NCBI RefSeq assembly: GCF_020969955.1
Contig: NZ_JAHDSX010000061.1
Location: 1 to 11,596 of the forward strand
DNA: 11,596 nt
DNA from: Allobaculum fili
GTDB taxonomy: Bacteria > Bacillota_I > Bacilli_A > Erysipelotrichales > Erysipelotrichaceae
Direction of reading: 5' to 3'
The notes under the pieces were generated by a model. That model saw only the letters and a list, made by a program, of their open reading frames with translations, searched no databases and was not told the origin of the DNA. Both the position numbers and the translations under genes were made by a program. Positions within the stretch are counted from its first letter, which is position 1; every line of letters begins with the position of its first letter. Of this stretch, positions 6,919-11,457 are shown piece by piece.

Positions 6919-7062
6919 GATGACATTCCTTTCTGTTTACATATTTTCGGTGCGCAAAACAAAAGTCTGCAGATCAGACCGTTCGCTTTCCAGTTTGGAA
7001 AAAGCGTTCAAATTCACTTTATCAAAAACAGTTCTGACCATTTTTCGTTTTGCTTTCTCTTC

Positions 7063-7145: not shown

Positions 7146-7745
7146 TTAGCCAAGGACTTTTTTAATCTCTTCGAGATGAATAGGTCCCTGACGAAGGATT
7201 ACAGGTGCGTCCCCGGTGCAGTCCACGATGGTGGAGGCGATGCCTTCCTGACAGGGACCGTCGAGAATTCCGTCGAGTGCCGGAAGCATATCGGCAGCCT
7301 CTTTCATGCAAAGGGCAGCCGGTTCGCCGGAAAGATTGGCGGAGCTGACCATCAGCGGTCTGGCTGTCTGACGCATGACATCGAGCAGTACCGGCGCATC
7401 CGGAATACGAAGGGCAATCGTATCCTTCCCGTTCGTGTATTCCCGACTGGCGTTTTCTTTAAGACGTACGATGAGCGTCATGGCGCCAGGTAAAAATGCG
7501 TCCGCCAGCTTCTGCGCCAGCGGGGAAATTTCAACGATATCCTCGACCTGATCCAGAGATGCGCACATCATCGGGATCGGTTTGGATTCCGGTCTCTTTT
7601 TAATCTGTTTCAGTCTTTGAAGGGCGTCCAGATCACCGCAAATGCAGCCGACGCCATATACGGTATCGGTCGGAAACGCGAGGATTTTTCCGTCCTTCAG
7701 ATCCTGAGCCATTTCACGAGTCTGTGTACTCGAATACTGTTTCAT
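7146..7745 (-). CDS. tsaC: L-threonylcarbamoyladenylate synthase (YrdC/TsaC-type, single domain)
   Basis: ORF track 7146..7907. Start moved to ATG 7745 (MKQYSSTQ...) with AGGTG 6 nt upstream. Motifs: ILAFPTDTVYGVG, KQIKKRPESKPIPMM, ALRIP, MVSSANLSGEP, ASTIVD. TAA stop. Confidence 0.85.
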   Translation of the reverse strand: MKQYSSTQTREMAQDLKDGKILAFPTDTVYGVGCICGDLDALQRLKQIKKRPESKPIPMMCASLDQVEDIVEISPLAQKLADAFLPGAMTLIVRLKENASREYTNGKDTIALRIPDAPVLLDVMRQTARPLMVSSANLSGEPAALCMKEAADMLPALDGILDGPCQEGIASTIVDCTGDAPVILRQGPIHLEEIKKVLG

Positions 7746-7792
7746 TTTTTCACCTGCTTTAGAATTTCCGCTTAATTTATTTGGGTTTCTAC

Positions 7793-7820
7793 TATATAGT
7801 GCCTTAAGCATTGTATACAA
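7793..7820 (-). promoter_or_regulatory. Candidate promoter for tsaC within a palindromic AT-rich patch
   Basis: - strand TTGTAT (7820-7815), a 16-nt spacer, then TATATA (7798-7793). The same patch read on the + strand gives TATACA (7814-7819), which could serve the mnmE leader. Confidence 0.35.
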
Positions 7821-7826
7821 CCAGAG

Positions 7827-8036
7827 CCGGCCTGGCTTGCCCAAAAGCCAGATCGGTGTTCTGCAGCGTACGTGTCCGGCTTGTCTGCATTCGGATTCGG
7901 ATCCCAAATCGCCGGCAGCCCTTGTCCTGGCGATCGTTCCTGGGATGCGGATACATTGGCCGGGTGTGCTATTCTCGTTAAGAGGAAGATAAGAAAGCAG
8001 GCCGGGTTTTACGGTCTGCCTTTCTTCTGTTTTTTT
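7827..8036 (+). promoter_or_regulatory. Structured GC-rich 5' leader of mnmE with terminator/antiterminator-like alternative pairing (candidate cis-regulatory RNA or small RNA)
   Basis: CCGGCCTGgCTT (7827-7838) is complementary to AAGCAGGCCGG (7995-8005): 11 bp with one bulge. This overlaps the 5' arm of the terminator at 7992-8025. A local hairpin CTGGCTT (7832-7838) / AAGCCAG (7845-7851) competes for the same 5' strand. Confidence 0.4.
7992..8036 (+). terminator. Intrinsic terminator 65 nt upstream of the mnmE start codon
   Basis: AGAAAGCAGGCCG (7992-8004) / CGGTCTGCCTTTCT (8012-8025) forms a 13-bp stem with one bulged C and loop GGTTTTA. It is followed by TCTG and T7 (8030-8036). Confidence 0.7.
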
Positions 8037-8100
8037 AATCTGCCTGTTTACACGCTTTTGGCTGAACGGCGCGGCCGGTTTCAGCTTCAGGAGGTTTTAC

Positions 8101-9432
8101 ATGTTTGAAGATACCATTGCGGCGATTGCTACCCCGCTGGCGCGCGGAGCCATCTCCATTATCCGGCTCTCGGGCGACGATGCGATTGCGATCGCGGATT
8201 CCCTCTTTTCCGGAAATCTTTCCGCCGCGAAAAGCCATACCATTCATTATGGATATATTGAAGAAAACCAGACGCCGGTTGACGAGGTTCTCGTTTCTGT
8301 TTTCCGTGCCCCTCGATCGTATACGTGCGAGGATGTTGTGGAAATCAATGCACACGGCGGACCGCTCGTTACCCGCAAGATTCTTTCGCTGCTCCTGAAA
8401 AACGGCGCGCGGATGGCCCGACCCGGCGAATTTACGGAGCGCGCCTTTCTGAACGGCCGGATTGATTTGTCCCAGGCGGAAGCGGTCGAAGACATGATTG
8501 ATGCGTCCACCGATGCCGGAAGCCGACAGGCCATCTACTCCATTCGCGGAGAAATCCGCAAGCTGCTTCAGCCGCTGATCGATTCCATGATGGATCTGAT
8601 CGCCAATATCGAAGTCAATATCGATTATCCTGAATACGAAGATGCCGCCGAAATGACGGCGGAAACGCTCCTGCCTCATTCGCGTGAAATTATTGAACGA
8701 ATGGATGAAATTATCGAACGTTCGAAAGCCGGGATGATGGTACAGGACGGCATCAGGACGGTCATTGCCGGCAAGCCGAATGTCGGCAAAAGTTCTCTGC
8801 TCAACGCTCTGCTGCGGGAAGACAAAGCGATTGTAACGGATATTGCCGGAACGACGCGCGACTTAGTCGAAGGCCGTGTTCAGATCGGCGATTTTGTTCT
8901 CAATCTTGTCGATACCGCCGGCATCCGAGAAGGGGCAGAAAAGATCGAGCAGATCGGTATTGAAAAAAGCCGTCAGTCGATTGAAGATGCGGACCTTGTT
9001 CTGCTCGTTCTGGATGCGTCCAGACCTCTCGACGAACAGGATCAGGAGCTTCTGAAGATGACCGAAAACAAGCGGCGCATTCTGATCCTGAACAAAAAGG
9101 ATCTTGCCCCCGCCTTTGAAATGGATGGCGCCGTCTCGATTTCCGCTCTGAACAAAGATCTGGGCGGCTTGAGCGAAGCGCTCGGCCATCTGTTCACGAG
9201 CGATCAGATCGTATGGCAGCCGCGTCTTTCCAACGAACGGCAGCTCGGGCTTCTAAGTCAGGCCCGACAGGATATGGATCGCGCCAGAGAAGCTATGGAA
9301 AACGGCATAGAGCCGGATCTGATCGAAATTGATCTTCTGTCTGCACACGATCATCTCAAGGAGATTCTCGGTGAAGTTCACCGGGAAGATCTTCTCGATA
9401 CCCTGTTTACCAATTTCTGTCTGGGCAAATAA
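8101..9432 (+). CDS. mnmE: tRNA uridine-5-carboxymethylaminomethyl(34) synthesis GTPase MnmE
   Basis: Intact 443-aa ORF with AGGAGG 7 nt upstream. N-terminal TIAAIATPLARGAISIIRLSG, G-domain GKPNVGKSSLLNAL / DTAG / NKKD, and the C-terminal CLGK tetrapeptide typical of MnmE. TAA stop. Confidence 0.97.
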   Translation: MFEDTIAAIATPLARGAISIIRLSGDDAIAIADSLFSGNLSAAKSHTIHYGYIEENQTPVDEVLVSVFRAPRSYTCEDVVEINAHGGPLVTRKILSLLLKNGARMARPGEFTERAFLNGRIDLSQAEAVEDMIDASTDAGSRQAIYSIRGEIRKLLQPLIDSMMDLIANIEVNIDYPEYEDAAEMTAETLLPHSREIIERMDEIIERSKAGMMVQDGIRTVIAGKPNVGKSSLLNALLREDKAIVTDIAGTTRDLVEGRVQIGDFVLNLVDTAGIREGAEKIEQIGIEKSRQSIEDADLVLLVLDASRPLDEQDQELLKMTENKRRILILNKKDLAPAFEMDGAVSISALNKDLGGLSEALGHLFTSDQIVWQPRLSNERQLGLLSQARQDMDRAREAMENGIEPDLIEIDLLSAHDHLKEILGEVHREDLLDTLFTNFCLGK

Positions 9433-11349: not shown

Positions 11350-11457
11350 GTCTGGCAGCTTCCTATCTTTGCCTTGCGGCTATTGTCGGCGTTCTGCAGC
11401 TTAACGGCTGTGTGCGAGATGGGAACAGGTGTATCCTGCAGGCTATCGCCACCATAC
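11350..11457 (-). rRNA. rrf: 5S ribosomal RNA (compact, about 108 nt)
   Basis: The reverse complement reads GTATGGTGGCGATAGCCTGCAGGATACACCTGTTCCCATCTCGCACACAGCCGTTAAGCTGCAGAACGCCGACAATAGCCGCAAGGCAAAGATAGGAAGCTGCCAGAC. It matches bacterial 5S blocks (GGTGGCGATAGC, GTTCCCAT, GTTAAGC, GCCGA, TAGGA). The 5' and 3' ends pair as helix I. Ends are approximate, within a few nt. Confidence 0.85.

Follow-up and report, generated by a model that had tools for sequence, protein, structure and literature searches.

Does the strong terminator directly upstream of mnmE in Allobaculum fili belong to a switch, to a plain leader, to a separate small RNA, or to DNA with no regulatory purpose? The window, as we call the whole stretch that was analysed (11,596 nt, contig NZ_JAHDSX010000061.1), comes from a genome of 2.58 Mb in 201 contigs with 50.5% G+C. 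A preliminary description had read the region before mnmE as an unclassified structured leader in which a long-range helix (P1) competes with the terminator, as in ligand-activated riboswitches. The element occupies part of the 355-nt spacer (7746-8100) between the divergent genes tsaC and mnmE. As had been described, no + strand gene lies upstream of it, the neighbour tsaC being on the − strand. The features discussed below are these:

7146-7745, − strand: tsaC/yrdC-type gene, the divergent neighbour of mnmE, 199 aa with a Sua5_yciO_yrdC domain (Pfam PF01300, E = 1e-49)
7791-7800, both strands: palindrome ACTATATAGT, which reads TATAGT each way (5/6 of the −10 consensus); the + strand box is 7795-7800
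7814-7819, + strand: TATACA, the −10 box of the preliminary description, without a −35 partner
7822-7863, + strand: 5′ hairpin hp1 of the MFE fold, 16 bp in three segments, −22 kcal/mol
7868-7969, + strand: domain 2, a long imperfect GC-rich hairpin whose stability is indistinguishable from that of shuffled sequence
7977-8039, + strand: intrinsic terminator, core stem 7992-8004/8012-8025 with a 7-nt loop; its A-rich 5′ flank pairs with the U-tract
7995-8005, + strand: left arm of the terminator, with 7827-7838 (P1) or 7875-7885 as alternative partners in duplex energies and constrained folds
8037-8100, + strand: terminator-to-mnmE spacer, with the Shine-Dalgarno (SD) sequence AGGAGG at 8089-8094
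8101-9432, + strand: mnmE, 443 aa, with the Pfam domains TrmE_N, MMR_HSR1 GTPase and MnmE_helical

Analysis of the predicted folds revealed two segments that are far more stable than their composition would suggest. Positions 7977-8039 form an intrinsic terminator, a GC-rich stem-loop with a U-tract directly behind it on the transcribed strand; the stem of 13 bp plus extensions folds at −19 to −25 kcal/mol (z = −4.5 versus shuffles). The strong terminator originally placed at 7992-8036 in the 5′ region of mnmE is therefore genuine, with a somewhat longer span. Its U-tract (8030-8036) begins one nucleotide past the extended stem and comprises seven U in the window and six in 22 of 30 sequences. 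At the other end of the element, hp1 has a z-score of −4.0, none of 300 shuffles being as stable, and the 5′ strand of P1 (7827-7838) lies inside it. The local hairpin that the preliminary description had drawn between 7832-7838 and 7845-7851 is part of this MFE fold (inverted repeat I2). The middle domain (7866-7972, 107 nt) folds no better than shuffled sequence (z = −1.5). The complementarity reported between 7876-7880 and 7911-7915 (CCGGC with GCCGG) exists, as does the GGCCGGGT repeat at 7958-7965 and 8000-8007 (direct repeat D2). The whole element as + strand RNA (7821-8045) folds at −89.9 kcal/mol (z = −3.1), versus a weaker −76.1 kcal/mol (z = −1.6) for the − strand, and 8037-8100 has no significant structure (z = +0.6).

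Within the species the element is present in every contig compared. All 29 same-species contigs, which come from other samples (runs and assemblies such as SRR30338859, ERZ27309476 and GCA_964261755.1) and are 98.8-99.9% identical over 2.7 kb, carry it nearly invariant; these copies are too similar to reveal covariation. Only three sites vary in the 216-nt core (7821-8036): T8008A in the terminator loop and the length of the U-run (6 or 7), both structure-neutral, and G7943A, which breaks a helix-end pair in four strains. The resulting 1.4% of variable sites compares with 4.1% in other intergenic sequence (15 in 366 nt) and 3.5% at third codon positions, a deficit that is not significant in either comparison (Fisher p = 0.08 and 0.16, respectively). 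The most polymorphic part of the spacer is 8037-8100, with four sites in 64 nt. A separate 13-nt indel polymorphism was observed in the lysS-tsaC spacer at window position 6942, where 6 of 27 same-species contigs have ATTTTCGGTGCGC-like extra bases.

The element is non-coding, with no leader peptide. Codon-usage log-odds in the six frames range from −0.09 to −0.64, versus +0.33 ± 0.17 for the true frames of the genome. All three + strand frames are open over the element, ending at TAA 7979-7981, TAA 7990-7992 and TGA 8106-8108, the last of which overlaps the mnmE start. A scan of 7760-8100 for a start codon with an SD found none besides that of mnmE itself. The 78-aa ORF has no Pfam match, and a phmmer search of 1.8 billion representative proteins found no relative of the 94-aa frame, whose stop lies at the terminator base. 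On the opposite strand, the tsaC frame (7146-8096) is open for 117 codons 5′ of its ATG, across the entire spacer. This extra stretch scores as non-coding and the TsaC proteins of relatives align from residue 1, so that it probably reflects GC-rich sequence with few stops rather than an N-terminal extension.

Known RNA families were searched with the covariance models of Rfam 15, at the gathering threshold over the window and at E ≤ 10 over 7700-8150. The former search returned only the 5S rRNA at 11350-11456; the latter returned nothing on the + strand and a single chance match to P31 (E = 3.8) on the − strand. By eye, the preliminary description had seen no glycine, TPP, SAM, FMN, T-box, PyrR or SRP/6S signature, and no Rfam family matches the element even at E ≤ 10. 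A T-box leader was rejected in the absence of any RF00230 match at that threshold, a tRNA/tmRNA scan was empty, and 6S RNA was rejected because the region has no match to RF00013. The best 6S candidate of this genome lies on another contig (C139:11517-11692, + strand, locus L077); it matches RF00013 over its full length with 25 bits (cut-off 46.4) and is probably a divergent 6S RNA missed by standard annotation. We also considered by eye a BglG-type RAT antiterminator, which had been suggested by the motif UUGUCUGCAUUCGG, and rejected it: the motif forms no RAT hairpin and is 100 nt away from the terminator.

A standard promoter scan found no promoter on either strand. The top candidate of a relaxed hexamer scan was the palindrome at 7791-7800, which would provide TTAATT-N17-TATAGT with a start near 7807 on the + strand and TTGTAT-N18-TATAGT with a start near 7784 on the − strand, towards tsaC, each with a weak −35 hexamer. 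The palindrome could be the shared −10 element of back-to-back promoters for tsaC and for the leader and mnmE. TATACA, from which the preliminary description had predicted the first transcribed bases, is not conserved within the species: the T at 7816 occurs in the window only, and the site reads TACACA in 28 of the 29 same-species contigs. Between the terminator and mnmE (8037-8100), the relaxed scan revealed neither a −10-like hexamer nor a sigma-70-like promoter pair, all reasonable + strand candidates being upstream of the terminator. Since mnmE has no recognisable promoter past the terminator, it most likely depends on transcripts that begin upstream and read through.

The pairing at the centre of the proposed switch does exist. 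CCGGCCTGGCTT (7827-7838) can pair with AAGCAGGCCGG (7995-8005) over 11 bp, with G7835 bulged and a seed (7827-7834/7998-8005) that corresponds to inverted repeat I7. This duplex has −20.4 kcal/mol, and the 165 nt upstream offer the terminator left arm no better partner; further segments with CCGGC reach −17.3 kcal/mol. When the upstream region was shuffled with its dinucleotides preserved, 45 of 2000 shuffles gave an equal or better duplex (2.3%), and P1 is thus only modestly beyond chance. Constrained folding of the full-length RNA places the P1-enforced structure 17.7 kcal/mol above the terminator conformer. In nascent RNA up to 8006, the left arm prefers 7875-7884 over 7827-7838, and P1 cannot form unless hp1, the local hairpin with the highest stability in the element, is melted. 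In these models a P1/terminator switch is physically possible, yet the energetics do not single it out.

Comparison with relatives sets the element in a rapidly changing spacer. The mnmE gene is present in all 41 relatives searched, and the divergent tsaC-mnmE pair is kept throughout the genus and in three other genera. The spacer between the two genes is 56-116 nt long in the outgroups and one genus member, which we regard as the ancestral type, and 172-540 nt in the remaining genus members, with unrelated sequence in each subclade. Close relatives of this mnmE come from Allobaculum sp. and Erysipelotrichaceae MAGs. Upstream of the nearest mnmE outside the species (L052, 80% identity) the sequence is AT-rich and unrelated, and the upstream regions of the next nearest genes (75% and 74% identity) differ as well; a metagenome scan with mnmE found distant mnmE genes only. 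BLAST of the spacer gave no match in 60 relatives and only chance matches of 17-37 nt, mostly to the T-rich tail, in 400 family genomes. The element was absent from plasmid and phage sequences, no second copy was found in its own genome (blastn-short, nhmmer), and 185,579 species genomes, scanned twice for exact patterns, gave no match. With a covariance model of 7821-7972, the window itself was the sole match among 101 genomes (100 relatives). A hairpin and T-run scan of the relatives' mnmE spacers found no strong terminator, the best candidate reaching −9 kcal/mol versus −19 to −20 kcal/mol here.

Judged by these searches, no species but this one has the element, and a terminator ahead of mnmE is not characteristic of the genus. 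Conservation and covariation of the long-range helix, on which the switch was to be checked, did not materialise: no relative in sequence or structure was found, and therefore no covariation can exist. Without any relative, comparative methods cannot test a regulatory model. What the comparison does indicate is that the tsaC-mnmE spacer turns over fast in the genus, with a different insert in each subclade, self-splicing introns included.

These introns were found in the mnmE spacer of three sister species (G003, G004 and G005), as full-length matches to the group I intron family RF00028 with 83-85 bits. They lie at L012:2863-3401 (G003), L011:1920-2393 (G004) and L010:2863-3309 (G005), all on the − strand of the loci and on the strand of mnmE. 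The intron splits mnmE after codon 3: exon 1 carries the ribosome-binding site and TTG TTT GAT, ACAG closes the intron, and GAT ACT ATT GCG opens exon 2. The spliced product would read M F D D T I A, versus M F E D T I A in the window. As no alternative start codon precedes exon 2, these species appear to need splicing for the production of MnmE. The genomes G003, G004 and G005 have 6, 9 and 11 RF00028 matches, all from a single family of closely related introns; none occurs in the remaining nine genomes of the genus, that of the window (G000) included. Judged by eye, copies such as those in L078-L087 interrupt housekeeping protein genes, several of them near the 5′ end, with hosts that include uracil-DNA-glycosylase-like, RluA/RluD-like pseudouridine synthase, cardiolipin-synthase-like and SpoU/TrmH-like methyltransferase genes. 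A literature search found no report of these introns, and they may be of more interest than the mnmE leader itself. A RAGATH-18 RNA (RF03064, 60.8 bits) was also observed in G005, about 2 kb from mnmE (L010:861-926, − strand). We considered that the window element could be a decayed group I intron and rejected this idea, as the element has no RF00028 match and a nhmmer profile of the sister introns finds nothing in the window.

The explanation that we prefer, tentatively and at a little below an even chance, is that a non-coding, lineage-specific insertion in the 355-nt spacer has come to serve as a long structured leader of mnmE, with a terminator and read-through. Transcription would start in the shared divergent promoter region, for which TATAGT at 7795-7800 with a start near 7807 is the best candidate. 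The RNA is predicted to fold first into the very stable 5′ hairpin hp1 (7822-7863), which probably stabilises it, and then into the less well-defined GC-rich domain at 7868-7969. Most polymerases would stop at the U-tract (8030-8036) and release a non-coding RNA of about 215-230 nt, and mnmE, which has a good SD and no promoter past the terminator, would be fed by the fraction that reads through. Termination would then be the default and would damp mnmE expression from the promoter region shared with tsaC. Because two upstream CCGGC segments can pair with the terminator left arm in the models, factor-dependent antitermination would be physically possible.

This leader model draws on the strength of the terminator, the stronger folding of the + over the − strand, the non-coding frames, near-invariant retention in 29/29 contigs, the alternative pairings of the left arm and the lack of a promoter pair in 8037-8100. 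Against it, the standard scan passes no promoter on either strand and the within-species polymorphism deficit is not significant. Relatives have neither the element nor a strong terminator at this place; the genus can therefore express mnmE without the arrangement, and a strong terminator before a housekeeping gene with no regulated escape would be an odd design. As it stands, the finding matters little, as a further case of a lineage-specific leader that holds a premature terminator; if read-through were conditional, it would be a rare, very young attenuator ahead of a core tRNA-modification gene. Our literature search found no reported riboswitch or attenuator in an mnmE leader.

The same hairpins could also have no regulatory purpose. 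We assign an appreciable, if minor, chance to a neutral lineage-specific insertion, for example a foreign or rearranged relic, in a spacer with fast turnover, whose hairpins would be by-products of palindromic GC-rich GGCCGG/CCGGC motifs. Spacers that differ wholly between species (56-540 nt), even in comparison with the relative whose mnmE is 80% identical, and short ancestral-type spacers (56-116 nt) agree with this account, as do the middle domain that folds no better than shuffles, the non-significant polymorphism deficit and the lack of conservation anywhere. A direct repeat with 11 of 13 positions matching (TTTTTTCACCTGC and TTTTTTAATCTGC) moreover brackets 286 nt. However, no search of relatives, plasmids, phages, species genomes or proteins found a source sequence, and composition does not predict the stability of hp1 or the terminator (z = −4.0 and −4.5); provided that transcription enters from upstream, the terminator will work with or without selection for it. 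It is likewise possible, although unlikely, that the element is an orphan gene for a trans-acting small RNA of about 215-230 nt, from hp1 to the terminator, whose place before mnmE is incidental, with mnmE served by read-through or by a promoter that escaped recognition. A 5′ hairpin and a Rho-independent terminator, the stronger + strand fold, the non-coding sequence and retention in all same-species contigs fit such a gene, and species-restricted small RNAs are common. Its promoter candidates are only weak, it has no paralogue or homologue, and the missing mnmE promoter downstream means that the RNA is not cleanly separable from an mnmE leader.

Ligand control is much harder to defend. In a ligand-activated ON riboswitch, a metabolite would stabilise the 7827-7838/7995-8005 helix round an aptamer of some 155 nt, which would keep the terminator from forming. 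The helix does overlap the terminator left arm, an equal duplex occurs in just 2.3% of shuffles, and mnmE would need read-through because no promoter lies past the terminator. Nevertheless, we consider this reading very improbable: no Rfam model matches even at E ≤ 10, no genome searched contains a homologue that could show covariation, P1 costs 17.7 kcal/mol relative to the terminator fold, melts hp1 and is not the preferred nascent antiterminator, and the enclosed domain is not significantly structured. To our knowledge, conservation of the riboswitch classes described so far extends well past a single species. Of the preliminary interpretation, a structured, non-coding and unclassified leader with a genuine terminator whose left arm can pair upstream is retained; the ON-riboswitch-like logic is not, given the lack of conservation, the unconserved TATACA box, the cost of P1 and an "aptamer" no better folded than shuffles. 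The alternatives that it named, a protein-dependent attenuator or an independent small RNA, may still apply. A broader, recently evolved form, in which a metabolite, protein or tRNA stabilises the pairing of 7827-7838 or 7875-7885 with the left arm in this one species, is also a long shot. If true, an orphan antitermination switch without a family would couple expression of MnmE, the tRNA U34-modification GTPase, to a physiological signal. Hardly credible is a ribosome-mediated attenuator, in which an upstream short ORF that ends at or crosses the terminator left arm would control termination. The three open + strand frames and the purine-rich AAG AGG AAG ATA AGA AAG CAG on the left flank of the terminator brought it up; in the candidate frame (7980-8000) these codons read K-R-K-I-R-K-Q and are read by MnmE-modified tRNAs. 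No start codon with a Shine-Dalgarno sequence is available for a leader ORF, however, all frames score as non-coding, the A-rich tract is accounted for by the U-tract with which it pairs, and the protein search found nothing related to the 94-aa frame.

The leader that we favour resembles several known systems in part. In formal logic it would follow the pbuE/ydhL adenine ON riboswitch (RF00167), with an enclosing helix whose 3′ strand doubles as the 5′ arm of the terminator; unlike that riboswitch, the element has no match to RF00167 or another Rfam riboswitch, no conservation and no significant structure in the approximately 155-nt enclosed region, and a very stable local hairpin at the 5′ end stands in the way of its putative enclosing helix. 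With orphan small RNAs that end in Rho-independent terminators it shares a predicted length of about 220 nt, a non-coding sequence, a 5′ hairpin, a terminal hairpin with U-tract, an intergenic position between divergent genes and the lack of homologues outside the species. It differs from them in having no clear promoter and in directly preceding a gene that lacks a recognisable promoter of its own. Stabiliser hairpins at the 5′ end occur in Gram-positive mRNAs, for example in the ermC and aprE leaders, and similarly no more than about 15 nt separate the very stable hairpin of the element from the inferred start. This hairpin is followed by a terminator, unlike those leaders; we know of no stabiliser leader in which a terminator comes after the hairpin.

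In layout, the element also resembles the premature intrinsic terminators, or transcription attenuators, of Firmicutes 5′ leaders, which the survey of Naville and Gautheret (2010, PMC2965389) describes as diverse and rapidly evolving. No sensing module can be assigned to the element, which shows no T-box, riboswitch aptamer, RAT or leader peptide, and because it occurs in a single species it is unplaceable in any attenuator family. What it has in common with them is a Rho-independent terminator in a long 5′ UTR before the SD, with a left arm that can pair upstream.
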